Below, piece after piece: positions 6,934 to 64,000 of a stretch of 64,000 nt of DNA (positions are counted from its first letter, which is position 1; each line of letters begins with the position of its first letter). The stretch covers positions 1,571,479-1,635,478 of the forward strand of contig CAWFIF010000001.1 in the NCBI GenBank assembly GCA_963815835.1, written 5' to 3'. A program made the position numbers and the translations under genes. The notes beneath the pieces were generated by a model. It made no database searches. It saw nothing but the letters and a program-made list of their open reading frames with translations, and had not been told where the DNA came from. The stretch comes from an uncultured delta proteobacterium (GTDB lineage Bacteria; Desulfobacterota; Binatia; Binatales; Binataceae).

Positions 6934-8151
6934 ATGAAGCATCTCATCGCGGCGGCCGTATTCATCGGCCTGCAGTTAACATCAAGTCAGCCGGCGCGTG
7001 CGCAAAGCAATGCATGTAGCGGAATGACAGTCGGAAAGCTGACGAGCCTCAACGGGTTTGTGCCGTTCTCGCCGAGCAGCTTGTGGAATACCGACATATC
7101 GAATGCTCCGGTCAACGCGAATTCCGCCAGCCTCATCGATTACATTGGCGCGAACCTGACGCTGCATCCGAATTTTGGCTCCGGCGATTACGACCGCCAA
7201 TCTATCGGCATCCCGTATCAGATCGTCCCTGGCGCGCAGAAAAAGGTGACGGTGAAGCTGACGGCCTACGGTGACGAGAGCGATCCCGGACCGATGCCGG
7301 TTCCATCGACTGCGCCAATCGAGGGCTATCCTAAGCCTGGTAACGGCGACCGCCACGTACTGGTCCTCGACAAGGACGGATGCTGGCTCTACGAGCTGTA
7401 CCATTCATTTCGGCGCAGCGGTGGCGCGTGGAGTGCCGATTCCACTGCTATCTGGGACATGACGATTGACGAACGACGTCCTTATACCTGGACCTCGGCG
7501 GACGCCGCCGGTCTGCCGATTTTCGCGGGACTGGCGAAATATGATGAGGTCGCGGCTGGCACGATCAATCACGCTTTGCGATTCACTGTGCCGGTGACGC
7601 GCCAGGCCTTCACGCCGCCCGCATCGCACTGGGCTTCTTCCGTTGATGATCCCAACGCGCCGCCGATGGGGATGCGCCTGCGTCTGAGAGCGAGTTTCGA
7701 CATCACTTCTTTCTCGGCCGCCAATCAGGTGATCCTCACCGGACTGAAGAAGTACGGCATGATTCTCGCCGACAACGGGAGCGGCATTTTTATCAGCGGC
7801 GCGCCCGACAGCCGCTGGAACAACGACGACCTCGGCAAGTTGAAGACGATTACCGCGTCCGACTTCGAGGTCGTCGCGATGGAGGTGGTTTATACAGATG
7901 ACAACATCCCGACTGGCGCGGCTCCGACGATCAGCAGCTTCACCGCAAGTCAGTTGTCCGTCGCACGCGGAAAGCCGATTACGTTGAGTTGGACGATCAG
8001 CGACGCCATCTACAACGTCATCTCGCCGGCGGTCGGCCCGGTGCGTGGCGACAGCGTCATCGTAAATCCCTCATCGAAGACGACCTACACGCTGTACTCA
8101 ACCAACCAGTATGGGCGAACGACCGCGAGCGTAACGATCAAGGTTCATTAA
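6934..8151 (+). CDS. Secreted hypothetical protein (signal peptide, C-terminal Ig-like region)
   Basis: N-terminus MKHLIAAAVFIGLQLTSSQPARA/QS is a classic Sec signal peptide. No recognisable catalytic motifs. The protein is 405 aa. Confidence 0.5.
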   Translation: MKHLIAAAVFIGLQLTSSQPARAQSNACSGMTVGKLTSLNGFVPFSPSSLWNTDISNAPVNANSASLIDYIGANLTLHPNFGSGDYDRQSIGIPYQIVPGAQKKVTVKLTAYGDESDPGPMPVPSTAPIEGYPKPGNGDRHVLVLDKDGCWLYELYHSFRRSGGAWSADSTAIWDMTIDERRPYTWTSADAAGLPIFAGLAKYDEVAAGTINHALRFTVPVTRQAFTPPASHWASSVDDPNAPPMGMRLRLRASFDITSFSAANQVILTGLKKYGMILADNGSGIFISGAPDSRWNNDDLGKLKTITASDFEVVAMEVVYTDDNIPTGAAPTISSFTASQLSVARGKPITLSWTISDAIYNVISPAVGPVRGDSVIVNPSSKTTYTLYSTNQYGRTTASVTIKVH

Positions 8152-9286
8152 GAGCCGAGGCCTTTCGCTGGGAGAGAAGGCGGGGCGCGTCGCGCGTCAG
8201 GCGACGGCTGTTCCTGGCGTCGCGATAAACCAGTTCGGTGCCGGCTCCCGAGTCATTCAGCGCAGCCTCAACCGCCTCGCGATGCGAGGACAAGCGGCAG
8301 ATCGGATCCGCCTCGGCCGCATTTCCCGCGAGCATGAAAGCCTGGCATCGGCATCCGCCGAAGTCGATATCTTTGCGTGCACAACTGCGGCATGGCTCGA
8401 GCATCCAACCATCGCCGCGAAATGTATTCAGGCCGGGCGAATCGCGCCAGATCTTCGCGAGTGAGTTATCGCGCACAGTTTCGAAGCGCAGCCCGGGAAT
8501 CACCTTGGCGGCGTGACACGGCAGCACTTCGCCCGCGGGATTGATGCACATGTAGCTGCGGCCCCATCCGCCCATGCACGGCTTCGGCTCACCTGAGAGA
8601 TAATCGTTTTGCACGAACACGATTTCGAGCTTTCCGCGATACGTCGGTATCGCTTCGAGCGCGATTTCCTCGGCATGAAGATATTGCTCTCGCGTCGGCA
8701 TCAGCGCGCGGCGATTCTCTGCTCCCCACGCGTAGAACTGGGTGTTCGCCAATTCGAGACGTTGTGCACCGAGCTCGACCGCGAGACGAATCAGTTCCGG
8801 AATTTCGGCGATATTGAGCCGGTGAATCACGACGTTCAGCGTAAATGGAAAACCGAGGGTGGTGATGAGACGCGCGACCTCGAGTTTCTTGCGATGCGAT
8901 CGCACCCCGGCGACCATTTCAGCATTCGCAATCGAGGCGCCCTGAATGCTCAGTTGAATATGCTCCAGGCCCGCATCGCGAAATCGTCGCAGTTTGTCTC
9001 CGTCGAGTAGCGTGCCGCCGGTTATCAAATTCGTGTACAGGTCGCATGCCCGCGCATGCTCAATGAGCTCGGTGAGATCCTCGCGCAACATCGGCTCGCC
9101 GCCCGAGAGATGCAGTTGCACCACGCCAAGTTCCGCAGCCGCAGAAATGGTGCGGCGCCATTCGGCAGTAGAGAGTTCGTCGCGGGTATGCGCGAAATCG
9201 ACCGGATTGCTGCAGTAAACGCATCGCAGCGGACATCGATAGGTGAGTTCCGCGACGAGCGTGTATGGACGCGGCGCGGGGCTCAT
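8138..9286 (-). CDS. pqqE: PQQ biosynthesis radical-SAM protein PqqE
   Basis: ..RPYTLVAELTYRCPLRCVYCSNPVDFA.. carries the CxxxCxxC radical-SAM motif characteristic of PqqE, with a SPASM-like Cys-rich C-terminus. The ATG overlaps the pqqD stop (ATGA). The start is taken at the internal Met of ORF 8138..9418. Confidence 0.85.
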   Translation of the reverse strand: MSPAPRPYTLVAELTYRCPLRCVYCSNPVDFAHTRDELSTAEWRRTISAAAELGVVQLHLSGGEPMLREDLTELIEHARACDLYTNLITGGTLLDGDKLRRFRDAGLEHIQLSIQGASIANAEMVAGVRSHRKKLEVARLITTLGFPFTLNVVIHRLNIAEIPELIRLAVELGAQRLELANTQFYAWGAENRRALMPTREQYLHAEEIALEAIPTYRGKLEIVFVQNDYLSGEPKPCMGGWGRSYMCINPAGEVLPCHAAKVIPGLRFETVRDNSLAKIWRDSPGLNTFRGDGWMLEPCRSCARKDIDFGGCRCQAFMLAGNAAEADPICRLSSHREAVEAALNDSGAGTELVYRDARNSRRLTRDAPRLLSQRKASALNEP

Positions 9287-9558
9287 TGCAGGAGTCCTCG
9301 CGCGCGAATCGATTCGAGGAAACTCTCCACCTCGTGCCGAAGCACATTGCGATCGGCGCCACGAAATTTGGCCGCCAGACCGTCGATGATTTGATCGATC
9401 GAGCGCTCGCCGTCGCACAGCCGCACGATGGCGGCTCCGGTTTCATTCAGGAGCAGGGCCGCTTCGGGGAACAGAAGCATTTCCTGGTTCGCCACTGAAT
9501 CAAACTTGAGCCGCGCCCTCGATGCGAGCCGCGGTCGCCATGTGCGCTCGGCGTGCAT
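9283..9558 (-). CDS. pqqD: PQQ biosynthesis peptide chaperone PqqD
   Basis: 91 aa. ..QEMLLFPEAALLLNETGAAIVRLCDGERSIDQIIDGLAAKF..VESFLESIRARGLL matches the PqqD fold. The ATG at 9556-9558 overlaps the pqqC stop, and the stop overlaps the pqqE ATG. Confidence 0.7.
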   Translation of the reverse strand: MHAERTWRPRLASRARLKFDSVANQEMLLFPEAALLLNETGAAIVRLCDGERSIDQIIDGLAAKFRGADRNVLRHEVESFLESIRARGLLQ

Positions 9559-19717: not shown

Positions 19718-19804
19718 AAAGGTGCTCGGCATCGCGGGTATGGACTTTCTGCGGCGGCATGGTATGTCGATACCGCTCGACATCAAATGGAGATTGAGGT
19801 CCCG

Positions 19805-21973
19805 ATGATTGTGAAGTCCAGTCATCTCGCAGCAGTTGCAATCGGTTTGACGATCGGGGGGTTCAGCTTTTTGCATTACAGCGCCCATGCCGAGGCTCAG
19901 GAGTCTCCCGCCGCGGCTGCCGCGACGCCATCGGCTCCCGCGCAAGTTGATTCTGCCCGGCTGGTCAGCGCCGACAAGGAACCCGGCAATTGGATGACCT
20001 ACGGCCGGACCTACAGCGAGCAGCGCTTCAGTCCGCTCAACAAAATCAACGCCGACAACGTCAAGAACCTCGGGCTGGCGTGGTACTACGATCTCGATAC
20101 TGACCGCGGGCAGGAGGCGACGCCCATCGTGGTCGACGGTGTGATGTACATCTCGACTGCGTGGAGCATGGTGAAGGCCTTCGATGCCAAGACCGGCAAG
20201 CTACTATGGGACTTCGATCCCAAGGTAGGCCGCGAAATCCTGATCCATGTCTGCTGCGATGCGGTCAATCGCGGCGTCGCGGTGTGGAAAGGTAAAGTCT
20301 ACGTCGGCACTATCGATGGACGATTGATCGCGCTCGATGCAGCTACCGGCAAGCCGGTGTGGAGCGTTCAAACAACCGACAGGACCAAGCCTTACACCAT
20401 CACCTCAGCGCCGCGCGTGTTCAACGACAAAGTCGTAATCGGCAACAGCGGCTCCGAGTATGGTGTGCGTGGATATATGTCGGCCTACGAGACCGCGACC
20501 GGCAAGCTGCTATGGCGCACCTATACTGTCCCCGGCGATCCTTCCAAGAGATTTGAGAGCCCGGCGATGGAGAAGGCTGCCAAGACCTGGACCGGGAAAT
20601 GGTGGGAGGAGGGCGGCGGCGCCACCGCCTGGGGCGGCATCTCCTACGACCCGGACCTCGACCTGATGTACTTCGGTACCGCTAACGGTGTCGAATGGGA
20701 TCAGAAGCATCGCAGCCCTGGCGGCGGTGACAATCTGTACGTCGCCTCGATCATCGCGTTGAAGGGTTCGACCGGTGAGTACGCGTGGTACTACCAGGTC
20801 GTTCCCGGCGATGTGTGGGATTACGACGCGACCCAGGACGTGGTCCTCGCCGATCTGACTATCGACGGCAAGCTGCGCAAAGTGGCGATGCAAGCGGGCA
20901 AGGACGGCTACTTCTACGTGCTCGATCGCAAGACCGGTGAACTGATCTCGGCGAACAATTTCGTGCCGGTCAACTGGGCGAAAGGTATCGACCTGAAGAC
21001 CGGGCGCCCCATCGAGATTACGGCGGCACGCTACGACAAGACCGGCAAAACCTTCCAGATCACGCCGGCCCCAAGCGGCGGTCACAATTGGCAGCCGATG
21101 GCGTTCAATCCGCAAACCGGATTGGTCTATATCCCGGCGCAAGAGGAAGGTTTCCCGTTCGCAACGGACAAGAATTTCAAACCCACCACCGTCGGAAATA
21201 ACCTCGCCATCGATCTCGCAGCCGTGACCGTGGCGGAGCCCGCGGCAAGAAAGAAGGCGATGAAAGGTGAGAAAGGCTTTCTCCTCGCATGGGATCCGAT
21301 CCATCAGAAGGAGGTCTGGAGATACCAGTACATGGGTCCATGGGACAGCGGCATCATGACGACCGCCGGCAATCTGGTATTTCAGGGCAACGCGACCCAC
21401 GAATTCGCAGCCTATCGCGCGGACAACGGCCAGAAGCTATGGTCGGCGCCGACTCAGACCGCGGTCCTTGCGGGTGCGATGACTTATGAAGTTGACGGCG
21501 AGCAATACGTCGCGACGCTGGTGGGATGGGGCGGCAGCTATGCGATCCTCGGCGGGAGCCTTTCCACCATCTCGGGCCCGCAGCGCAACATCAGTAGACT
21601 GCTGGTCTACAAGTTGGGCGGCACCGCAACCTTACCGCCTCCGCCCGCTGAAGAAGTGAAGGTGCTCGATCCACCGAAACAGACCGCTAGCCCCGCGACC
21701 ATCACCGAGGGCAAGAAGCTGTATGGACGCAACTGCGTCATCTGTCATGGTGTCGATGTGATCAGCGGCGGACTCAATCCGGATCTGCGCTACAGCAAAC
21801 TCCTCGATGACGACGGATGGTACGACGTCGTGCTGGGCGGCAAGTTCAAGGATCAGGGGATGGTGTCCTTCGCCAAGAACATCAACAGACAACAAGCGAC
21901 GGCGATTCGCGCCTTCGTAATCCAGCGCGCGATCGATTCCAAGGCCGAGGAATCAAAGCAAGCGAAGAACTGA
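19805..21973 (+). CDS. PQQ-dependent alcohol dehydrogenase, quinohemoprotein type (PQQ beta-propeller + C-terminal cytochrome c)
   Basis: Signal peptide MIVKSSHLAAVAIGLTIGGFSFLHYSAHA. Vicinal-Cys motif ..IHVCCDAVNRGVAVW.. of quinoprotein ADHs, repeated W-containing propeller blades, and a C-terminal ..GKKLYGRNCVICHGV.. heme-c site. Confidence 0.85.
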   Translation: MIVKSSHLAAVAIGLTIGGFSFLHYSAHAEAQESPAAAAATPSAPAQVDSARLVSADKEPGNWMTYGRTYSEQRFSPLNKINADNVKNLGLAWYYDLDTDRGQEATPIVVDGVMYISTAWSMVKAFDAKTGKLLWDFDPKVGREILIHVCCDAVNRGVAVWKGKVYVGTIDGRLIALDAATGKPVWSVQTTDRTKPYTITSAPRVFNDKVVIGNSGSEYGVRGYMSAYETATGKLLWRTYTVPGDPSKRFESPAMEKAAKTWTGKWWEEGGGATAWGGISYDPDLDLMYFGTANGVEWDQKHRSPGGGDNLYVASIIALKGSTGEYAWYYQVVPGDVWDYDATQDVVLADLTIDGKLRKVAMQAGKDGYFYVLDRKTGELISANNFVPVNWAKGIDLKTGRPIEITAARYDKTGKTFQITPAPSGGHNWQPMAFNPQTGLVYIPAQEEGFPFATDKNFKPTTVGNNLAIDLAAVTVAEPAARKKAMKGEKGFLLAWDPIHQKEVWRYQYMGPWDSGIMTTAGNLVFQGNATHEFAAYRADNGQKLWSAPTQTAVLAGAMTYEVDGEQYVATLVGWGGSYAILGGSLSTISGPQRNISRLLVYKLGGTATLPPPPAEEVKVLDPPKQTASPATITEGKKLYGRNCVICHGVDVISGGLNPDLRYSKLLDDDGWYDVVLGGKFKDQGMVSFAKNINRQQATAIRAFVIQRAIDSKAEESKQAKN

Positions 21974-44946: not shown

Positions 44947-46593
44947 CTACTTTGCCAGCGAGACGCTTCCTTCATAGGTCTTCATATCGACGATCCTCAG
45001 TTTGGGTATGACATCAGCAACCCCGAGGTCGCGCAGGAAGTGCGCCGGGAAATTCCGGTAGCGCAACCGCACGCTCAACCTCAGCGGACCGGTCGCATCG
45101 ACGGGTACGCTTACACGGTACGTGGCGGTTTTGCTCTTGAGCGGCGGAATACCTTCCTTGAACACTCGTCCCGCGAATGGGAAGCCTTGCAGGAAAGTTG
45201 GGTTCGGCGGGGGAGCGAGAAACGGCGCGGGACCGAGAAGCCGATTCGTGGTGCTGATAGCTTCCGATTGGGTGCCGAGGAAGTTGGTGATTACAAAGGT
45301 AGCTTCGAGGTTAAGAAGATCGCTGTCATATGGCAGGGTCCCATCTTGAACCGCCATGCTCTCGTAGTCGCGCAAGTCCTGGTACTGATCATAGTCGCCC
45401 GACTCATAGATCTTTTCCCCACGCCCATCCAGCACTTTTATGTCAAGCCAGACCTGGCGCTCGGAGGCAAAGCCCGTCGGCAGATTGTGACCTGCGCCCG
45501 AGTTGGTAACAGTCACGTCGAAGCGCATCGTGGAACCGGGACGGACGCTGTCGGGGTGGCTTACATCGATCGTCGCAGCGTTGCGCAGGAGGGTTTCGCG
45601 CTCAGAATCGAGATGCGTCTGGAGTTCCGCAAATCCCTTATCGCCGAGGAAGAGCTCATTCTTGCCGAAGTCCTTTATCACCGAATAATCAGGGCCGGTG
45701 AACTTATGACTCGATTTATGGCGGCGTGGCGCTGTGGGAAAAATACCGTTGTTTACGATGTAGCCCTCGGGCAGCTCCGAGTGAGGAGTCGGCTTACCGG
45801 CTTCCGGACCCATATGGCAGTCTTCGCAGACGATACCACGCCGCGCGTACGGGCCATTCTTCCACTCACTGTATGCCTCTTCCAGACGGAAGCCGTCCGG
45901 AGTGAAGACGTCATGGCATGCGCCGCATAGGTGTCCCGAGGTAAACAGCGGAGAGTAACGCGACTTGTGCGGCGTCTTGATGAGACGAAGGGACGGATCG
46001 GATGGAGCGCCCGGTTCGTCGGAGCCATAGTATGGCCCATACACCGTCGGTTCCGGATCGCCCGGAACCGGAAGCGGAATCTGACCAGTGGCTTCGACGA
46101 AGTTAGCGCTCTGCGAATGGCACGTCATGCAAGTGACGCTCTCCATCGCGATCGAGGAGCGTTTGCTGTTCGATTCGATGGCGCTCTCGCCCGAGGAAAT
46201 TCCGATCCCGCTATGACAGCGCACGCAAAAGGTGCCGAGACTCCCCCCTGTACCATTCAACACGAAAGAATTGAATGCGATGAACACCGGACTGTGTTGC
46301 GCATACGCATGCATCGAGGTCGCCCACTCGTTGTACTGAGTAGGATGGCAGGTCTGACAGGTCGTCGCGGGAAGGAAGACGGTTTGCTTGGGACTCTTCG
46401 GAGGCGGAACTGTTGCAAGCCGAGTCAGTCCAGGACTTGTGCCGCAAGCATAAAACACCCCGACCACGGCAAGTGCCGCGAGAGTGGCCGCGATCGCCCG
46501 ATAGTTTACCCCTTTCCGTCGCGGGGACGCATGTGGGCGCCGACCCGCACCACGGGGAACCTCATCAGCGAACGGTTTGCTCCGGTTACTCAT
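44947..46593 (-). CDS. Pentaheme c-type cytochrome (N-terminal membrane anchor/signal)
   Basis: Five CxxCH sites (CQTCH, CVRCH, CMTCH, CGACH, CEDCH) in 548 aa, with an N-terminal hydrophobic segment AIAATLAALAVVGVFYAC. Confidence 0.8.
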   Translation of the reverse strand: MSNRSKPFADEVPRGAGRRPHASPRRKGVNYRAIAATLAALAVVGVFYACGTSPGLTRLATVPPPKSPKQTVFLPATTCQTCHPTQYNEWATSMHAYAQHSPVFIAFNSFVLNGTGGSLGTFCVRCHSGIGISSGESAIESNSKRSSIAMESVTCMTCHSQSANFVEATGQIPLPVPGDPEPTVYGPYYGSDEPGAPSDPSLRLIKTPHKSRYSPLFTSGHLCGACHDVFTPDGFRLEEAYSEWKNGPYARRGIVCEDCHMGPEAGKPTPHSELPEGYIVNNGIFPTAPRRHKSSHKFTGPDYSVIKDFGKNELFLGDKGFAELQTHLDSERETLLRNAATIDVSHPDSVRPGSTMRFDVTVTNSGAGHNLPTGFASERQVWLDIKVLDGRGEKIYESGDYDQYQDLRDYESMAVQDGTLPYDSDLLNLEATFVITNFLGTQSEAISTTNRLLGPAPFLAPPPNPTFLQGFPFAGRVFKEGIPPLKSKTATYRVSVPVDATGPLRLSVRLRYRNFPAHFLRDLGVADVIPKLRIVDMKTYEGSVSLAK

Positions 46594-48409: not shown

Positions 48410-48658
48410 CTCTGGTCGCTGCCAACGCTCGGAGCGCGCGCTGTGCCTGCATCGCTCTTTCCCAGCACGTGAGCCTGTTCGCCGGACGCCGATTGCGAGT
48501 TCCCGTCGGAGTTGAATGTATGTGGCCGGAGCCTTTTGGACAAGTTGGCAATAGATTCAGCGCATGAATTCCGCTGCGAGCAACCCGAGGAAAAATCATG
48601 GTGGCAATCGATCGCGCCGCCGCGTTATACAGACATACGACCGCGGAGTTATTGTTTA

Positions 48659-49912
48659 ATGAGTGATGCAAACCGCCTCTCGCCGTATCGATGGGTCATC
48701 GAGATCCTGCTCCTCCTTACGCTGCTCTCGCAGTCGGTGACCTGGCTGGCCCCCGCGCCGATCCTTGTCCCGATAAGCAAAAGTCTGAACATCTCGCTCG
48801 CCAACGCCGGCCTCATCATTTCGATCATCGCGCTATGCATCGCGATCTTCTCGATGGCGGGCGCGATCGTCATGGAGAAACTCGGGGCGCTGCGCGCGCT
48901 CATTGCGGGCATCTGGCTGATGTCGATCGCGGAGATTCTGAGCGGCTACTCGGGCAGCTTTGGGCAACTGCTTTTCTGGCGCGTGCTCGAGGGCATCGGC
49001 TATGGCGTCATCATCGCGCCGCCCGGCGCGCTCACGATGCAATGGTTCGGCGAGCACGAATGGCCCTACATCAATATGGTCAACGCGCTGTGCGCCTACA
49101 TCGGGCTGTTCGCGGTATTCCAGTTGACCGCGCCGATCTACGTCGGAGTTGGATCATCATGGCTGCTGGTGCTGCGCGACTATGGGATCGCATGCGCGGT
49201 CGTCGCGCTGCTGTGGACGATTTTCGGCTACGAGCGCCGCAACCCGATCGTCGATGCCGCGGTCACCGAATCGGCAGAGGAGCGCGGCTCGGCCCTTGGC
49301 GAAGTGGCGCGGCGTCGCGAGATCCTGCTCATCGCGGCCGGGCTGTTCGGCGGGATGTGGGTCTTCCAGCTCTACACCGCGTTCCTGCCGACCTACTACA
49401 GCCAGTATCGGGGGCTGGGCCTCGCGGAAGCATCGTCGCTGACCTCGGTGTTGCCGCTCACCGGCATCTTCGCGGCGTTAGCCGGAGGACTCGGGACGGG
49501 GATGTCGGGACTTCGAAAGCCGTTCCTGTGGCCAGTCGCGATCTGCGCGCTGTTCGGATGCTTCGGCGCGGTCGTATTTTCCGATCCGATGCTGATCCGG
49601 GCATCGCTAGTGTTGTTTGGAATTGGCGCCGCGGGATCGCTCGCCGCGATCACGACGTTGGTGATGGAACTTCCGGGGATGACGCCCGAAAAGATGGGCG
49701 TCGGTTTGGCGTTCGTATGGTCGGTGGGCTATGCGGGCGCGTTCGTATCGCCCATCGTGGGTGGCGCGCTGGCCGCATCGATCGGGCTCAAGAACGTGAT
49801 GATGTTTTTCCTGGTCTTCCATTTTCTGCCGATCGGTTGCATGTACCTGCTGCCGGAAACCGGAAAAGGAAGAGCGGCACCGGCGCAAACTGCCACCGCA
49901 GCCGCGGGCTGA
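48659..49912 (+). CDS. MFS-family transporter
   Basis: 12 predicted TM segments of a typical MFS fold. The start is the internal Met (MSDANRL) of ORF 48512..49912. An overlapping out-of-frame 432-aa ORF is rejected. Confidence 0.7.
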   Translation: MSDANRLSPYRWVIEILLLLTLLSQSVTWLAPAPILVPISKSLNISLANAGLIISIIALCIAIFSMAGAIVMEKLGALRALIAGIWLMSIAEILSGYSGSFGQLLFWRVLEGIGYGVIIAPPGALTMQWFGEHEWPYINMVNALCAYIGLFAVFQLTAPIYVGVGSSWLLVLRDYGIACAVVALLWTIFGYERRNPIVDAAVTESAEERGSALGEVARRREILLIAAGLFGGMWVFQLYTAFLPTYYSQYRGLGLAEASSLTSVLPLTGIFAALAGGLGTGMSGLRKPFLWPVAICALFGCFGAVVFSDPMLIRASLVLFGIGAAGSLAAITTLVMELPGMTPEKMGVGLAFVWSVGYAGAFVSPIVGGALAASIGLKNVMMFFLVFHFLPIGCMYLLPETGKGRAAPAQTATAAAG

Positions 49913-50069
49913 TGCTGCGCGCTTCATGCTCGAAGCCACCGCATGAGGCGCGCCAGCCACGTAATCCTCTTCGAGTTCGCTTCGAATAGCGCGATCTGGC
50001 CCTACGAAAACATTTCCCATTGGACGTCAAACGGCGTAAGGGAAAACAGGCCCCAAGGAGATCCGTGCA

Positions 50070-50416
50070 TGTCTTGCGGTCAACGCATGCGTGGAATCAT
50101 ATGGCTCGCCTGCGCTGTGGCGTTGGCGTCGGTTGGATGTGCCGCGGGTAGCGCGAAATCGACGTTGCACCCGCGCCAGGCGCCGATTGCCTCGCTCGAT
50201 TCTCCGGCGATGGGATTGGTGGGGCTCCTACCGATGGACCCTTGGACTGGCCCTCCACGTGCGGTGGGAATGAAAGCCGTGGTGGTCGGCTACGTGGTTT
50301 CGCATCCCGCGTTGGAGACCGATTTGTCGGTTCCAGGGGGCCGGGATGGTCATGCGCTGCCGGTTCTCGCATTCAAGCTGACCATGATCATCACGCAGAG
50401 GCCAACGGCTCGGTAG
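50070..50416 (+). CDS. Hypothetical lipoprotein; may continue by frameshift into ORF ending at 50805
   Basis: MRGIIWLACAVALASVGC lipobox. A protein-like segment ..VYHGHGNLNVFYKPDGF..LRTFRF (ends in Phe) lies in another frame from about 50380 to 50805. Confidence 0.35.
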
Positions 50417-57033: not shown

Positions 57034-57768
57034 TCAATTGCCGCTGACGTGCGGATTGCCGTTGGCGCCGTTCTGCACGAACGCATCCATCGGCACCAGG
57101 CCGCGGCGCCGACGCTTGATGTCGTCGAGCTCGGCCTCGGCCTTCGCTTCGGCGTTGCGACGCCGGATCTCGCCGAGCTTCTCCTCGACCTCGGCGCTAT
57201 GCAGCTCCTTGTTGACGCCGGCCTGCGCGAGCATCTGCTGAATCGACTCGCGCACTTCCTCGAGCGATCGCACATCCTCGTCGTAGGAGAGGCTTTCGAG
57301 CGCCTGCTGGATGCGCACCCGCGCCTGCGCGTTGCGAAGCCGCGCCATCATCCGGACTTTCTCGACCTTCAGCTTTTCGATTTCGTCCTTGAACGCGATG
57401 AGATTTTTCTTCGCGTCCTCGGCTTCGTTCGTAAGCTGCGTCAGCTCTTCCTTGAGGCGTTCGGTTTCCGCTTCGAGCTCATGCTTGCGCCGCAAGAGGA
57501 TGAGGGCGCACTGATCCTCATTCATGTCGGCAGCCTGCACAGCTTGCTCCGCCACCTCGACCAGCTCCGAGGTCTTGCGCTTGAGGTCGCGCTCCAGCTT
57601 GCTGCGCATATAGATGACACCGGCGGCCGCGCTCTTCAGTTGCTGATAGCGGCGCACCCGGTCCGCGATCGCGGATTCGTAGACCGCCTCGGGGTCGCGC
57701 GACTCGCGCGCTTTGATCCATCGCCGCAGCTTGCCGCCGAATAGACTCAGAATTCTTTCGATAAACAT
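57034..57768 (-). CDS. pspA: PspA/IM30 (Vipp1) family protein
   Basis: MFIERILSLFGGKLRRWIKARESRDPEAV.., followed by a long coiled coil. Confidence 0.65.
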   Translation of the reverse strand: MFIERILSLFGGKLRRWIKARESRDPEAVYESAIADRVRRYQQLKSAAAGVIYMRSKLERDLKRKTSELVEVAEQAVQAADMNEDQCALILLRRKHELEAETERLKEELTQLTNEAEDAKKNLIAFKDEIEKLKVEKVRMMARLRNAQARVRIQQALESLSYDEDVRSLEEVRESIQQMLAQAGVNKELHSAEVEEKLGEIRRRNAEAKAEAELDDIKRRRRGLVPMDAFVQNGANGNPHVSGN

Positions 57769-57829
57769 CTCACTTCTCCTCGATTCGCGCGGGCTGCGTG
57801 GCAACCTCGCGTGATACTTGTGAATTTGC

Positions 57830-58348
57830 CTACAGCCAGCGCCTCACGCGCGTTTTGTAATCGGAGTATTGCGCGCCAAAAAGCCGCTCCATGTTTTGTT
57901 CTTCAAGCGGAATCACCATCCGATCGATGATGACGACGAACGCGATCGGCGCGAGCAGCATCGCGATCGACGCGAAGAAAACCGCGAACCCGAAAAGAAC
58001 AAGCGTGATGCCCAGGTACATCGGATTGCGGGTGAACGTGTACGGCATCTCGACGACGAAAGCGGTCGCTTCGCCTTGCGGGTTCTTGGTTGTGCCGCGC
58101 GCCTGGAACAGTGCAGCCGCGTAGAAGCAAATCCCGGTTCCTCCCGCGACCAACAGCAGACCAAGAATGTGATGCGCATAAACGGCACGCGGACCGCCCG
58201 ACAGGGCGTGCAGCAGCAATCCACCCGCCAGGCACAGCAGCGCGAGTAACGGAGGAGGAATCGGGAAACCCTTGGCCTCCGGAACATTCGGCGCGCTTGA
58301 AGTCGTCGCCGAACTACCGCTCGATGACGTGGTTGAAGTCTCATCCAT
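57830..58348 (-). CDS. Isoprenylcysteine carboxyl methyltransferase (ICMT/PEMT) family membrane methyltransferase
   Basis: ..YTFTRNPMYLGITLVLFGF.. and ..EEQNMERLFGAQYSDYKTRVRRW.. are ICMT-family motifs. N-terminal Ser/Thr-rich tail. Confidence 0.65.
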   Translation of the reverse strand: MDETSTTSSSGSSATTSSAPNVPEAKGFPIPPPLLALLCLAGGLLLHALSGGPRAVYAHHILGLLLVAGGTGICFYAAALFQARGTTKNPQGEATAFVVEMPYTFTRNPMYLGITLVLFGFAVFFASIAMLLAPIAFVVIIDRMVIPLEEQNMERLFGAQYSDYKTRVRRWL

Positions 58349-58360
58349 GATTCGCCGTCC

Positions 58361-59836
58361 TCATTCCTCTTCGGCCTTGAGTCCCAACTCCGCGACGCTG
58401 ATTCCCAGCTCGCGCATTTTCTGCTGGAAGCTCTGCCGATACATTCCGACTTTTTCGGCCGCGCGCGAGATGTTTCCATTGGTCGAGCGCAGCGCCCGCA
58501 CAAAATATTCGCGCTCCCATTCGCTGACGAATTTCTCTTTCGCCTCGCGAAATCGTAGGCCGTTGCCACCATTGCCGTTTTCGTTGAGATGAATCTCTGC
58601 CGGCGGTGAAGATGACGCGCCGGCGCCGCTCTCCAGTTTCATGGTCGCCTCCGTGGGTGTGCCGCCGAACAACTCGGCGGGCGTGATTTCGTCGCCCGAG
58701 GACAGGATCACTGCCTGCTCGATAGCCGAACGCAGCGAACGCACATTCCCGCGCCATGGATTCTCGACGCATGCGCGCATCGCCTCGGGCGTGAGTTGCT
58801 TGTGAAGCGGCTTCTGCGCGGTCCCGAATCGCTCGCAGGCTTCCTTCAGAAAATGCTGCACAAGACGCGGGATGTCTTCGCGCCGCTCGCGCAGTGGCGG
58901 GACGCGAATCTCCACCACCTTGATTCGATAATAGAGGTCCTCGCGGAAGCGCCCCTCGGCCACCATCGCTTCGAGGTCCTGGTTGGTCGCGGCGATGATG
59001 CGGACGTTTGCCGAGAGCGACTGATTGCCGCCGATGCGCTCAAAGCGCTTCTCCTGGATGACGCGCAGCAATTTCGCCTGCGTCTCCGGATTCATGTCGC
59101 CGATCTCGTCGAGAAACAGCGTGCCGCCTTCCGCCGCCTCGAATTTGCCTTCGCGCCGCGCAATGGCGCCGGTGAAGGATCCCTTCTCATGACCGAAGAG
59201 TTCGCTCTCGACCAGCTCGCGCGAGAACGCCGCGCAATTGACAGCCACGAACGGGCCTTTGGCGCGCGGGCTCCTGAAGTGGATCGCCTTTGCGACCAAC
59301 TCCTTGCCCGTCCCCGATTCTCCACGAACCAGCACCGTCGCATCGGTCTGCGCGACCTTCTCGATGGTCTCGTACACGCGCACCATCGCGAGCGAGCCGC
59401 CCACCATATCGGCGAATCTCCCGGCCTCGCGCGCTGCCTGCTCACTGAGTTGTTGATGGGCGCGCTTCAGGAGCTGCTTCTCCATCACCTTGCGCACCTT
59501 GATCCGCAACTCGTCGTTGTCGAATGGCTTGGGAAGGTAGTCCTCGGCGCCGGCCTTCATCGCCTCGACGGCGATTCGCTGCGAGCCGTAGGCGGTGATC
59601 ATCAGGACCGCGCACTCCGCGTCGAGCTGGCGCACCGCGCGCAACAGGTCGAGGCCGCTCATTCCCTTCATGCTCAAGTCGGTGATGATGACGTGAAACG
59701 GCGCGGCTTTGACTTTTTCGAGCGCCTCTTCACCGGACTCCGCGGTCTCGACCTCGTAACCTTCCTTGGAAAAGAGTCCCTTGAGCGCGATAACGATGCC
59801 GCGCTCGTCGTCAACGATCAGCAAGCGCCCCGTCAT
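58361..59836 (-). CDS. Sigma-54-dependent response regulator (REC + AAA+ bEBP + Fis HTH; NtrC family)
   Basis: Receiver ..[21 protein letters not shown]... AAA+ ..[25 protein letters not shown].. (GAFTGA variant). C-terminal ..[24 protein letters not shown].. HTH. The ATG overlaps the upstream kinase stop. Confidence 0.9.
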
Positions 59837-61485
59837 TGACGTCCCCTCATCGAGTCAGCCGCCGCGCTAAGTTGCACGGTCGGCGACGAATCCAAAATCG
59901 TAGTTGTGGATGAAGTGTTGTTGCCGCTGTTCATTGGCGAGCCTGCGGGCTTCGCCTGCGGCGGCGAGTCTGCAGGTTGTGCCTGCGCGGCGGTTCCGTT
60001 TTGATTCACGGCTGACGCGGCGCCATTCAGATCGGCGTTGATCCAGGCGCGTGCCGCATCCGCAAGCGGAATAGAAATCGATAGCTCAGTGCCTTCGCCC
60101 ACGCGGCTGTTCACATCGATCTTGCCGCGATGTGAATCGACCACCTTCTTCGCGATTCCCATCCCGAGCCCGGTACCGGTCTGCTTGGTGGTGTAGAAGG
60201 GATTGAAAATCTTCGCGAGCTTGTCTTCCGGAATGCCGCATCCGTTGTCGCGAATCGTCACCGTCGCCATGCCCGGATTCGCGCTGCGGATCGCGACATC
60301 GAGATGACGCTCGCTGGTGTTGTTTTCCATCGCATCGATCGCGTTGTCGATGATGTTGGTGAAAACCTGGCGCAGCTTGTCCGCATCGGCGCGGACCGTG
60401 GGCCCTCCGATGTAGTTGCGCGAGATCGAGACGTTCTTCGATTCCAACTTGCCGCGCATCTGAGTCAACGATGCGTCAAGAATCGCGGCCAGATTCACGT
60501 TGTCGAAGTTGTAGTCTTCTTCCTTCGCATACTTGAGAAGATGCGACACGCTCTTCTCGACCCGCTGCAACTCATCGAGCGCGACCTTCGCATACTCGAC
60601 GTTTTCCTGCGAGGTCGGATCTTCGCCCATCTGCTGCACGAGGCTCTTGGCGGCGGCGATCGGATTGCGGATCTCATGCGCGAAGCTGGCGGTCAGCTCA
60701 TCGAGCGAGGCCTGCTTCTCGGTCGCCATCACCTCTTTTTCCTTGGTGACCTCGGCGCGCACCTCGCGCTGAATCGCGGGCTCGAAGACGCGCTGGCGGA
60801 TGACGTCCCATCCGTAGACCGCGGCGAAGTGGCTCACGATGCCGAACCCCCATCCGAACGCGGGCCATTGCCACCACCAGTGGAACGGACTGGTGAACAT
60901 GTTGAGCAGGAACAGGAATCCGATGACGATGCCGTACCACATCAGGTGGATGTAAAAGCCGGCCTCGCGCGAAGCTTGTTTGCGCGCCAGCAGGTAGGCG
61001 CGGCGCTCATCATCGGTCTTGAATTTGGGATCGTCGTTGGCGCTGGGACGAGGATCGCGTGGAGCTTCGGGTGCGACGGCAGCCGCAGCAGGCGTCTTAC
61101 CACTGAACTTCGATGCCTCGCGGTCGATGGTCTCGCGCAGCTTGCGCTGAAAATCGCGCGCCGCAGCCTCGATATCCTTGGCGCCGCTCCTCCAATCCTG
61201 CTGCCGGGACCAGGCCTTGAATTCCTTCCACTCGGCGCGCCCCCAATCCTCGAAGTCCTTCGGCCAATTGCCCCAGTGCTCCGAGGCGCACGCACCGCGG
61301 TCTGAAGCGTCCGCCTGCGGATCATATTTGCGCATGTAGCGGTCCCATTTTCTCGACCATCTATCCGAGCCTCTATTGCACGACATGCGCCGATACCTGC
61401 GTCTTTGAATCAATGCGAAAATGATTATTGCGGCGATTATAAAACCCATGATTCCTGGCTTGGCCGCTCGAAAGCCGTCCAGCAT
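59833..61485 (-). CDS. Sensor histidine kinase (N-terminal TM, Trp-rich 2TM-like segment, HisKA, HATPase_c)
   Basis: ..[44 protein letters not shown].., H-box ..[12 protein letters not shown].., and N/G1/G2 boxes ..[24 protein letters not shown]... Confidence 0.85.
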
Positions 61486-61723
61486 TTTTGTAGAGATTGG
61501 CGGCGACCTTCTTGCAGCTTAGCTCTCACGCAGGGGTAATGGGAGCAAGGCGGATGCCATCAGGCCATCGCTAAAATGTCTTGAATATCAAGGTTTTTTT
61601 CGATGCAGGAATTCCTCGAAGCTTGGAATGCAGTCCGCGGACTGCATTGGGCCGACTGCGCATGGCTCGCGCGTTAGAAATTACGAATCGAATCGGTGTA
61701 CAGTTTTTCTGGGCACGATTCCA

Positions 61724-62512
61724 ATGAGTCAGTATTGGCCGTTTTCCGGCCTGACCCGTTACGGCGCTCTGCGCGAGCGCCTCATCGTATCGCTCGACTT
61801 GGGCGATCGGCGCGAAGCTTTGAAGATGGTCAACCAGCTCGGGCGGCTGGTTGGCATGTTCAAGATCGGCAAGCAGCTTTTTGTTTCCGGCGGCCCTGAC
61901 TTCGTGCGCGAGGTTCGCCGTCGCGGCGCCGAGGTTTTCCTCGACCTGAAATTCCATGACACGCCGCGGGCGCTGATGCGCACTGCGATGGAGGCCACGC
62001 GCCTCGGGGTGCGGATGTTCGATGTCCACCTCAATGGGCATGCGGAATCGATTGCGCGGGTGCGCGCCGAAATCAACCGACTGTGCCAGAACGAAGGGCT
62101 GCGTAAGCCGCACATCGTCGCGGTTGCGATGCTGATGGGTGTGACGCGCGAAGACGCGGAGAACGGTTCGCGTCACGGAATCGACGGAATGGTGGAACTC
62201 GCGCGGCATGCGGCGACCGCGGGCCTCGACGGAGTTTTCACCTCGGCGCAGGGAGCCCCGCGCATCCGCAGCATGTGCGGAAGGCGCTTCATTATTGTGA
62301 CGCCGGTTCCATGTCTGCGCGATGGTGCGAGCGAGTTCGTCGATGGCGCCGCGGCGATTCACGCGGGTGCGGATTTTCTGGTGGTTGGCAGCCCAATCTG
62401 GAAGGCCAGCGAGCCGATGCGGGCGGTGCGCGAGATTGTCGATCAGATAGACCGTGGGCTTCGCAGCGGACCTCCCAGCGGACCGATCTCAATCATCCCG
62501 CGTCACCGCTAA
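61724..62512 (+). CDS. pyrF: Orotidine-5'-phosphate decarboxylase
   Basis: ..LIVSLDLGDRREALKMV..MFKIGKQLFVSGGPDFV..VFLDLKFHDTP.. shows the catalytic DxKxxD region. Confidence 0.85.
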   Translation: MSQYWPFSGLTRYGALRERLIVSLDLGDRREALKMVNQLGRLVGMFKIGKQLFVSGGPDFVREVRRRGAEVFLDLKFHDTPRALMRTAMEATRLGVRMFDVHLNGHAESIARVRAEINRLCQNEGLRKPHIVAVAMLMGVTREDAENGSRHGIDGMVELARHAATAGLDGVFTSAQGAPRIRSMCGRRFIIVTPVPCLRDGASEFVDGAAAIHAGADFLVVGSPIWKASEPMRAVREIVDQIDRGLRSGPPSGPISIIPRHR

Positions 62513-62536: not shown

Positions 62537-63079
62537 GTGAGAGAAATGTCACGGCTGAGCATTCCGGCCAATGAGCAACTCCCTTCGGAGATGCGCAAAC
62601 AAGTTGAATCGATCGATGCGACCGGTGCGGATTCGACGGTGCTGCGAGTGTTGGGCCATCGGCCCGACATGATCGAATCCTACTTTAAGTTCTACTACCC
62701 GCTGCACAACGGCGGCATCGTGGACCCCACGCTCAAGGAGTTGGTGCGGCTAAGGATCGCGTCGCTGAACCAATGCCTCACTTGAAAGAAAGCGCGATTT
62801 CCATCGGCGATGGAAAAAGGTCTGACTGAAGAGAAAATTTCGCGGCTGGAAAATTTCCGCGCCGACCCGGCGTTTAACGAGCGCGAGCGGATCGCGCTGG
62901 AGTTCGCGGAGAAAATGGCGACCAATCACACTTCGATCGACGACGATTTCTTTCGCAGGATGCGCGCGCATTTTTCCGACGCGGAGATCGTCGAAATTGG
63001 GATGGCGGCGGGGCAATATATCGGCTTCGGCCGCCTGTTGATGGTATTGGACCTGGAGCGTCCCGTCTGTAACATCTGA
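62537..63079 (+). CDS. AhpD-like / carboxymuconolactone-decarboxylase-family protein with in-frame TGA at the second Cys of the CxxC motif (candidate selenoprotein, CxxU)
   Basis: ORFs 62537..62785 and 62810..63079 share a frame. Read through, they give ..ELVRLRIASLNQC-L-T-[TGA]-KKARFPSAMEKGLTEEKISRLENFRADPAFNERERIALEFAE.., which aligns with AhpD-core ..LVRLRVSQINGCAYC..W.....F.ERERAAL... A hairpin follows the TGA. Confidence 0.55.
62798..62816 (+). promoter_or_regulatory. SECIS-like stem-loop 12 nt downstream of the in-frame UGA
   Basis: TTTCCATC-GGC-GATGGAAA is an 8-bp perfect stem with a G-rich apical loop. The position and size are compatible with bacterial SelB-binding elements. Confidence 0.4.
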
Positions 63080-63090
63080 GCGGTTTATTT

Positions 63091-63386
63091 AGGATAGAGG
63101 CCCGATGGGGGCGCACAGCGCCGCGACGAAGTCGCTCCCGAGGCGGAGCGAAGCGTAGTCGAGGGAAACGAGAGCCGTCAGTTGAAGTTTCAAAAAACGT
63201 AAAATCGAGGCCCGAAGGGGGCGCGGAGCGCCACGCCGCAGGCGTACCCGAGGCGGAGCGAAGCGGAGTCGAGGGAAACGAGAGCCGTCAGTTGAAGTTT
63301 CAAAAAACGTAAAATCGAGGCCCGAAGGGGGCGCGGAGCGCCACGCCGCAGGCGTACCCGAGGCGGAGCGAAGCGGAGTCGAGGGA
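63091..63386 (+). repeat. 110-nt tandem direct repeat (about 2.7 copies) forming paired hairpins, ending 10 nt before the TauE/SafE start codon
   Basis: Copies run 63091-63200, 63201-63310 and 63311-63386. The last two are identical. The first differs by compensatory changes that preserve two hairpins: GGCGC-ACA-GCGCC and GCGAC-GAA-GTCGC versus GGCGC-GGA-GCGCC and ACGCC-GCA-GGCGT. Confidence 0.7.
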
Positions 63387-63396
63387 TATATTAAGG

Positions 63397-64000
63397 ATGG
63401 GGGAAATCCTACTCGGACTATTCGCGCTGTCGGTCGGCTCCGGCTTCATCGGCGCGCTGTCGGGGCTGGGCGGCGGCGTCTTCATCGTGCCCGCGCTGGT
63501 GGTGCTCGCGAAAATGCCGATGAAGGTCGCGGTCGGCGCGAGCCTCATTTCGGTAGTTGCGACCAGCGCCGGCGCCAGCGTCGCATTCGTGCGCGATGGA
63601 TGGACCAACCTGAAGGTCGCGATGGTGCTCGAATGCGCGACCGTCACCGGCGCGCTCACCGGCGCATACCTCGCAGGGGTGATCCCCACGACCGTTCTCG
63701 AATTGCTTTTCGCGCTGATGATGCTGCAATCGGCATACTTCTCATTGGAAAAACAGGAAGACGATCTGATTGAAAGCGGCGATCCAATCGCCAAACGATT
63801 GCATCTCATGGGCGAGGTCCAGGACGAAACCGGAAAGCTGGTGCACTATGAAGTTATCAATTTTCCCAAGGGCGCGGCGCTGATGGTCGTCGCGGGCATC
63901 ATGTCGGGGTTGCTCGGAATCGGTTCCGGAGCGCTCAAGGTGATGGCGATGGATTACTTCATGCACCTGCCGCTGAAGGTTTCGAGCGCGACCAGCAATT
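63397..64000 (+). CDS. TSUP-family (TauE/SafE, DUF81) membrane transporter, 3'-truncated by window edge
   Basis: Not in the ORF track because there is no stop before the window end. ATG at 63397 gives MGEILLGLFALSVGSGFIGALSGLGGGVFIVPALVVLAK..GASLISVVATSAGASVAFVRDGW.., the TauE/SafE glycine-rich signature. Confidence 0.7.
   Translation, partial: MGEILLGLFALSVGSGFIGALSGLGGGVFIVPALVVLAKMPMKVAVGASLISVVATSAGASVAFVRDGWTNLKVAMVLECATVTGALTGAYLAGVIPTTVLELLFALMMLQSAYFSLEKQEDDLIESGDPIAKRLHLMGEVQDETGKLVHYEVINFPKGAALMVVAGIMSGLLGIGSGALKVMAMDYFMHLPLKVSSATSN

Follow-up and report, generated by a model that had tools for sequence, protein, structure and literature searches.

We identified a predicted selenoprotein gene in a 64,000-nucleotide stretch of contig CAWFIF010000001.1 (hereafter, the window), which derives from an uncultured delta proteobacterium of the Binataceae. 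The gene (62546..63079, + strand) encodes a complete AhpD-like protein with the CMD fold and is interrupted once, by an in-frame TGA (62783..62785, + strand) at the second position of the motif C77-L-T-U80. We consider it very probable that this TGA is decoded as selenocysteine (Sec) through a hairpin of the selenocysteine insertion sequence (SECIS) type, and that the locus is a single gene of 177 residues.

The locus appears as two open reading frames (ORFs), 62537..62785 and 62810..63079, which a preliminary description of this DNA took to be one frame split by the TGA. Frame arithmetic (62810-62537 = 273 = 91x3) and read-through translation bear this out. The first ORF closes with TGA 62783-62785, and the read-through product around this codon is ...LNQ-C-L-T-[TGA]-KKARFPSAMEKGL.... 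The frame contains 177 codons including Sec80, has no interruption other than the TGA, and closes with the true stop TGA at 63077-63079. An upstream GTG (62537) would give 180 codons. However, ATG 62546 is the likely start, judging from the orthologues, because these begin with MSRLS (they end at ...VCxI). The purine-rich sequence GGGTGAGAGAA precedes this ATG. The complete AhpD/CMD protein proposed earlier therefore stands, with the CMD domain extending across the TGA, but its length is more likely 177 than about 180 amino acids.

Relatives in a protein collection (141 found, 120 listed; column counts are from the matches listed) show the expected pairing of Sec with Cys. At the TGA column, 91 full-length homologues carry Cys, which places the TGA at the second Cys of a CxxC motif, as had been claimed, and gives the Sec/Cys alignment that the preliminary description proposed as a check. 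Cys is found at position 80 in at least 90% of Cys forms, and the first Cys column (Cys77) is Cys in all 97 sequences that cover it. The matches listed also include three N-terminal fragments that stop exactly at ...NQCLT and 24 C-terminal fragments that begin within a few residues past the TGA column. These are the pieces that gene callers yield from a Sec gene. Two database entries for gammaproteobacterial orthologues (P0004 and P0007) have Trp at this column, and the DNA of their clade shows TGA. The DNA encoding P0004 (locus L089, 717-1277) has TGA at the Sec position, annotated as Trp in the JGI record, and the annotator must therefore have used a code with TGA as a sense codon. In the DNA checked, the column holds TGA or a Cys codon and in no case Trp or Gly.

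Orthologous DNA was obtained as the best 80 locus matches to a Sec-type query in species-representative genomes. The search used the narrower of two alignments (A2), as the other (A1) mixed N- and C-terminal fragments and was too divergent. The closest loci (72-93% identical) are from metagenome-assembled genomes (MAGs) named 'Candidatus Binataceae' or 'delta proteobacterium'. Further loci are from other Binatia, Rokuibacteriota, Acidobacteriota, Myxococcota, Desulfobacterales, a Limisphaerales MAG and many Pseudomonadales (Azotimanducaceae, OM182), the latter including many marine and freshwater MAGs. An in-frame stop occupies the column in 79 of the best 80 loci and Cys in one (L064). In an ungapped 62-nt alignment of the codon and hairpin region (the window plus 78 non-identical sites, 79 sequences), the codon is TGA in every case and TAA or TAG in none. 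All 79 loci stay in frame and show no further stop short of the normal C-terminus. Neither a sense codon other than Cys nor an ordinary stop ending a shorter protein, either of which the preliminary description held would speak against Sec, was found in relatives, and TGA is present at 78 further orthologous sites.

Substitution patterns were compared between the window and 11 Binataceae orthologues (Nei-Gojobori method). The ratio of nonsynonymous to synonymous change (Ka/Ks) is 0.04-0.14 upstream of the TGA and 0.03-0.18 downstream, at Ks of 0.5-2.4. Because the value past the TGA matches the upstream value, we infer that the downstream half is translated and under the same purifying selection as the half before it. 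The next ATG follows eight codons after the TGA; these codons (KKARFPSA) are kept as protein with synonymous changes (GCG-CGA, GCA-AGA, GCC-CGC), and a gammaproteobacterial clade with the peptide LLQGAEH has no Met at the position of ATG 62810.

One metagenomic copy has a different form (JGI metagenome contig Ga0597208_0000062, L004 1322-1800; also L005 and L006). It retains the N-terminal half, the TGA and the hairpin with one mismatch; homology is lost about 15 codons past the TGA, and the copy abuts a convergent gene of a glycosyltransferase cluster. Unlike the window gene, this copy is a truly truncated remnant.

The 8-bp stem-loop described earlier as lying 12 nt past the TGA was recovered at 62798..62816 (+ strand), with a 5' arm at 62798-62805 (TTTCCATC), a 3-nt GGC loop at 62806-62808 and a 3' arm at 62809-62816 (GATGGAAA). 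The apical loop starts 21 nt after the UGA. The isolated hairpin has a folding energy of -7.3 kcal/mol and sits inside coding sequence (F-P-S-A-M-E-K). A perfect 8-bp hairpin 8-20 nt downstream is found for 2 of the 1876 TGA trinucleotides in the window, and only TGA 62783-62785 among these has an open coding frame both before and after it, which holds even if the stem is relaxed to 7 bp.

The evidence that the hairpin exceeds chance is comparative. Over the 79 aligned sequences, 92.2% of cells in the 8-pair helix (columns 25-32 with 36-43) are paired, versus 39-58% if the partner strand is slid by 1-3 columns; a shuffle control gives 77%. Double-sided changes occupy 86 cells, versus 3-15 in the slid controls. 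Compensatory changes were identified in six of the eight pairs, and RNAalifold independently predicts the same 6-bp core, in which all six pairs covary. Stems that differ among clades occur in the same register (TTTCCGTC/GACGGAAA, TTTGCATC/GATGCAA, TCCCTTC/GAAGGGA, TTCTGCA/TGCAGAA, TCCTGCA/TGCAGGA and CTTCGCGTC/GACGCGGA), and the stem is kept even where the peptide shifts from FPSAME to LLQGAE. The register is moved by 2 nt in one Binatia clade (CCATCGC-GGA-GCGATGG). At least 90% of sequences have G at the first two loop positions, and the loop is GGC in 57, GGG in 13 and GGT in 3 of the 79. We did not identify a comparable hairpin in the Cys form (L064). The conserved register, the compensated pairs and the G-rich apical loop argue that the hairpin is a selected RNA element of the bacterial SECIS type, as the preliminary description had suggested.

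The model for such elements is the SECIS of E. coli fdhF as worked out in the Böck laboratory, a hairpin that closely follows the UGA on its 3' side within the coding sequence, carries a G in its apical loop and binds SelB (summarised in PMC1088965). The window hairpin has the same placement and likewise a G in the apical loop, and is presumed to be a SelB site. Unlike the fdhF element, it is much smaller (a stem of 6-8 bp and a GGC loop), has no evident bulged U and has no Rfam match.

Several observations weigh against the decoding of this TGA as Sec. No match to SelA, SelB or SelD was found by tblastn with the E. coli proteins in the window and 86 related loci, and the 30 window ORFs that were scanned with NCBIfam or Pfam include no sel gene. 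ARAGORN identified no tRNA, and so no tRNA-Sec, in the 64-kb window or in 60 loci (L007-L066, about 0.9 Mb), a negative that is weak because zero tRNAs is fewer than expected for about 0.9 Mb. The 60-68 nt after the TGA fold no better than shuffled sequence (z = -0.24, -0.54), and neither a SECIS nor another credible Rfam family was matched, either in the whole window at the gathering threshold or in 62740-62880 at E<=10. The protein and its clade also score below the cut-off of every NCBIfam selenoprotein model, including TIGR01926 'peroxidase-related enzyme' (45.6 bits, and 31-45 in five other clades; cut-off 81.8) and NF053654 (77.6 bits, and 52-96 in other clades; cut-off 310). In addition, selenium incorporation at residue 80 is deduced from the comparison of sequences. 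Our residual doubt arises from this last point and from selABCD not having been seen in the window or the related loci. Decoding in the source organism would be expected to use the SelA/SelB/SelC/SelD pathway.

Among ordinary stops in the window, TGA is the commonest (21 of 46 long ORFs end in it), and the genetic code is thus not reassigned. Scans for TGA codons flanked by frames with high G+C content at third codon positions, and for TGA followed by a hairpin, revealed no other credible selenoprotein gene in the window. One pair of ORFs was rejected. The ORFs 48512-49912 (+ strand, an MFS transporter gene ending in TGA) and 49943-50416 (+ strand) share a frame; the second (157 amino acids) starts 10 codons past the TGA of the first, has no Pfam hit and no hairpin, there is no sign of read-through, and the shared frame is probably a coincidence. 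ORF 44947-46593 has weak matches, far under the cut-offs, to '(seleno)protein' cytochrome and UshA models, and these were set aside.

Two alternative explanations deny that the halves form one protein. The locus could be a pseudogene, in which a nonsense change of TGC to TGA disabled an ordinary Cys-type AhpD-like gene and left its downstream half to decay. The TGA is indeed one base from the Cys codon TGC, public gene calls show two short ORFs at the locus, and the metagenomic copy noted above is truly truncated past the hairpin. Yet the TGA is fixed across several phyla (78 further orthologous sites), with Ks reaching values above 1, all 79 loci are free of frameshifts and second stops, and the equality of downstream and upstream Ka/Ks effectively refutes decay. 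We consider a pseudogene vanishingly improbable, and the earlier preference for a Sec codon over a pseudogene holds, with a downstream Ka/Ks of 0.03-0.18 and TGA in 79 of 79 sequences. It is also exceedingly unlikely that the gene is genuinely split, with a 79-residue N-terminal product and a separate 89-residue C-terminal product from ATG 62810 that then assemble. Gene callers predict exactly these two products, and the window, like many orthologues, has an ATG 24 nt past the TGA. Against this, the KKARFPSA codons between the TGA and the ATG are conserved as protein, the whole gammaproteobacterial LLQGAEH clade lacks the Met, and ATG 62810 lies within the 3' arm of the hairpin with no Shine-Dalgarno-like sequence before it. 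A split gene would not require the stop to be always TGA, and the modelled fold of a Cys homologue (P0001, described below) places the active site at the junction within a single domain.

Two others accept a continuous protein or leave the question aside, and dispute selenium or the hairpin. The UGA might be read through without selenium, either by near-cognate decoding (as Trp or Cys) stimulated by the hairpin or as a sense codon. The absence of detected Sec machinery in the window and related loci is in keeping with this, as are the two database entries that give Trp at the codon. We nevertheless regard it as very unlikely, as TGA is a normal stop here, the column is otherwise Cys, the residue that Sec replaces, and the 'Trp' of P0004 is TGA in the DNA. 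The hairpin position, small loop and loop G also fit the bacterial SECIS (PMC1088965), and the same architecture defines published AhpD-like CxxU selenoproteins (PMC2398784). It is very improbable that the hairpin is a mere by-product of palindromic codons, with no functional RNA element. The arms do encode conserved residues (F-P-S / M-E-K), TTTCCATCGGCGATGGAAA is identical across distant lineages, and the single-sequence folding score is unremarkable. However, clades with the peptides RHRGAME, RLLQGAEH, RIPSAKG and RFASATR keep a 6-9 bp hairpin with its register within 2 nt, double-sided changes far outnumber those in the slid controls (86 cells versus 3-15), and the Cys-form homologue L064 lacks the hairpin.

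The protein expected from decoding of the TGA as Sec matches the Pfam CMD domain (PF02627; E=5.6e-11, 42.7 bits versus a gathering score of 23) over residues 44-122, so that residue 80, the TGA position, falls inside the domain. Every solved structure matched by sequence is AhpD-like and aligns across the TGA: Atu0492 (2gmy, E=6.9e-13), PA0269 (2ijc/2o4d), 2prr, 2pfx and the debrominase Bmp8. The fold was assessed by proxy, using the AlphaFold model of P0001, which is 51% identical to the window protein. This model (pLDDT 91.9, pTM 0.86) has nine helices in a single domain, the CxxC lies at the N-terminal end of helix 78-90, and its best Foldseek matches in the PDB (2prr, 2oyo and 6k40; TM 0.76-0.80) are 'peroxidase-related' AhpD proteins of about 185 residues. 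By this proxy, the window protein is predicted to be a single all-helical AhpD-fold domain, and five of its nine helices would be missing from the 79-residue N-terminal product.

Residues invariant in the family are E65, R68, N75, C77, R84, E114, H128, E150, G160, G162 and R163. The proton relay of AhpD has the form Glu-X11-Cys-X-X-Cys-X3-His (PMC3141380), and E65-X11-C77-X-X-U80 reproduces its Glu/Cys/Cys part. The codon for Glu65 (62738..62740, + strand), 12 residues before the first Cys, corresponds to Glu36 of Pseudomonas aeruginosa PA0269 and Glu118 of the Mycobacterium tuberculosis protein (MtbAhpD). The first Cys of CxxU, Cys77, is encoded by TGC at 62774..62776 (+ strand). The relay His, four residues past the second Cys, is not present; in the PA0269 alignment its position (His55 in PA0269, His137 in MtbAhpD) is taken by the invariant Arg84 (62795..62797, + strand). 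A C-terminal Cys, Cys175 (63068..63070, + strand; …ERPVC-N-I), is invariant in the Sec-type alignment and is shared by 81 of the 92 Cys-form homologues of full length; a role as a third redox residue is possible. Thus, the window protein shares the two-helix catalytic motif Glu-X11-Cys-X-X-Cys with the characterised Cys-type enzymes MtbAhpD and PA0269, and differs from them in having Sec for the second Cys, Arg84 for the relay His and the extra Cys175. A further difference from these enzymes is in gene context: the neighbours are pyrF and a TauE gene, with no ahpC or other peroxiredoxin gene beside the window gene or elsewhere among the annotated window genes.

Sec usually occupies the attacking position. 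In MtbAhpD, which is characterised better than any other such system, the exposed second Cys (Cys133) attacks AhpC as the nucleophile, with Cys130 as its partly buried partner, although the AhpD of B. thailandensis appears to differ (PMC6626918). By analogy with MtbAhpD, Sec80 would be at the attacking rather than the resolving position, and it is doubtful that this residue should be labelled 'resolving', as it was in the preliminary description. We propose that 62546..63079 encodes an AhpD-like thiol/selenol oxidoreductase with the active-site motif E65-X11-C77-L-T-U80. The mRNA hairpin would act as the SECIS that recruits SelB.GTP.Sec-tRNA(Sec) to the ribosome, leading to insertion of Sec where translation would otherwise terminate. 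The selenolate of U80 would take the place of the exposed attacking Cys of AhpD, and C77 may be the buried partner that closes a selenenylsulfide, which an upstream reductant would reduce again. These redox roles of U80 and C77 are assigned by analogy, and the physiological substrate may be a peroxiredoxin or another disulfide or sulfenate.

AhpD-like proteins are, as noted earlier, a known CxxU selenoprotein family. They were first reported from Sargasso Sea data in 2005 (27 sequences, COG2128; PMC1088965). They ranked with the most abundant families in the Global Ocean Sampling data (2008), where AhpD-like 1 had 299 Sec and 902 Cys forms and AhpD-like 2 (PF02627) had 70 Sec forms (PMC2398784). 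A 2026 review of prokaryotic selenoproteomes lists AhpD-like under TIGR01926, with CxxU (PMC13188914), and AhpD-like CxxU proteins are listed in BSepDB (PMC13326102). Compared through their published descriptions, these families share a superfamily with the window protein and resemble it in the AhpD/CMD fold, a length of about 180 amino acids, Sec at the second position of C-x-x-C with Cys homologues at this column, and a stem-loop directly past the UGA whose small apical loop contains G. The match to TIGR01926 is nearly full length (2-153 versus 1-156 of 178). The best NCBIfam match is NF053654, 'YciW-related (seleno)protein' (GroundWater_YciW; E=9.3e-22), which has the same domain organisation and is flagged by NCBI for Sec forms. 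As the window protein is far under its cut-off, it is a relative of this family and not a member. Because scores are under both curated cut-offs, the window clade is placed outside TIGR01926 and NF053654, and the protein is best classified as a new member of the already known AhpD-like CxxU family that lies beyond both models. Literature on selenocysteine or selenoproteins was not found for Binatia or Binatota.

The gene follows pyrF (orotidine-5'-phosphate decarboxylase, 61628..62512, + strand; NF001273, TIGR01740). The pyrF stop is 33 nt before ATG 62546, and the + strand of this interval has no terminator-like site. Given the short gap, the two genes are probably co-transcribed. Downstream is a gene for a TauE/SafE-family membrane protein that runs off the window (63397..64000, + strand; PF01925, E=8.6e-35; 65% identity to the TauE of locus L001). 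A TauE neighbour is present at 11 of 13 Binataceae loci. Loci L001 and L018 (72% identical) have the same gene order without pyrF and without the repeat described below, and TauE is followed by DUF1634 and SDR genes. On long ENA metagenome contigs (L090/L091), the neighbours of a more distant homologue are unrelated.

The clade is characterised by the motif E-X11-C-X-X-U-X3-R and a conserved C-terminal Cys, with 79 Sec forms among the best 80 matches, in at least six phylum-level lineages. In Binataceae its gene is fixed beside the TauE/SafE anion-exporter gene, and its SECIS-type hairpin with the GGC loop is unusually small and nearly identical between phyla. It is conceivable, if rather unlikely, that the clade is a distinct AhpD-like selenoprotein subfamily beyond the curated models, which would act in sulfite, organosulfur or selenium handling and not as an AhpC reductase, with the SECIS marking horizontal spread.

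Between the selenoprotein gene and TauE is a tandem repeat of a 110-bp unit (2.6 copies, 63097-63386). The first ~70 nt of this unit (GAGGCCCGAAGGGGGCGCGCAGCGCCACGCCGCAGGCGTACCCGAGGCGGAGCGAAGCGGAGTCGAGGGAA) are a dispersed intergenic element in close Binataceae relatives, often flanking the orthologous gene (L007 1729-1797 and 2568-2635; six copies in L008; L009 9925-9995 and 10542-10609; L011 10552-10622; L012 18451-18747). The element has an internal hairpin with compensatory variants (ACGCC-GCA-GGCGT, ACGGC-GCA-GCCGT and GCGAC-GAA-GTCGC) and no Rfam match. It looks like a repetitive extragenic palindrome (REP) or miniature inverted-repeat transposable element (MITE), or a small structured RNA.

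Divergent from pyrF and the selenoprotein gene is an operon (57034-61485, - strand) that resembles a psp-like envelope-stress module. It encodes PspA/IM30 (57034-57804), a PEMT-like protein (57830-58348), a sigma-54 response regulator (58361-59836) and a histidine kinase (59833-61485), all on the - strand. The same module flanks the orthologue in L001. A sigma-54-type promoter-like site with one mismatch (TGGCATCCGCCTTGCT, 61544-61559, - strand) is located just upstream of the operon, and matches to the sigma-54 pattern across the window are not above chance in number. We identified no sigma-54 promoter upstream of the selenoprotein gene; the only good site is that of the divergent operon. Elsewhere in the window are genes for PqqE, the radical SAM enzyme of pyrroloquinoline quinone (PQQ) biosynthesis (8138-9418, - strand, 491 bits), and for a PQQ-dependent dehydrogenase of the methanol/ethanol family with a C-terminal cytochrome c domain (19787-21973, + strand, 646 bits). 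By sequence, these are consistent with an alcohol-oxidising or methylotrophic lifestyle of the source organism.

The finding opens no new question on recoding or selenium biology, and the gene matters mainly as one that annotation pipelines cut in two. With standard gene callers and the NCBIfam models now in use, genes of the clade are split into two ORFs named 'hypothetical' or 'alkylhydroperoxidase family', as GenBank, JGI and ENA records show. The Sec form goes unrecognised in at least 79 species-level genomes, all of which a dedicated model would repair. The gene probably adds an example of Sec at the attacking-Cys position of an AhpD-type redox centre. It also implies the use of selenocysteine by the Binataceae-like source bacterium, and is indirect evidence for such use in Binataceae.

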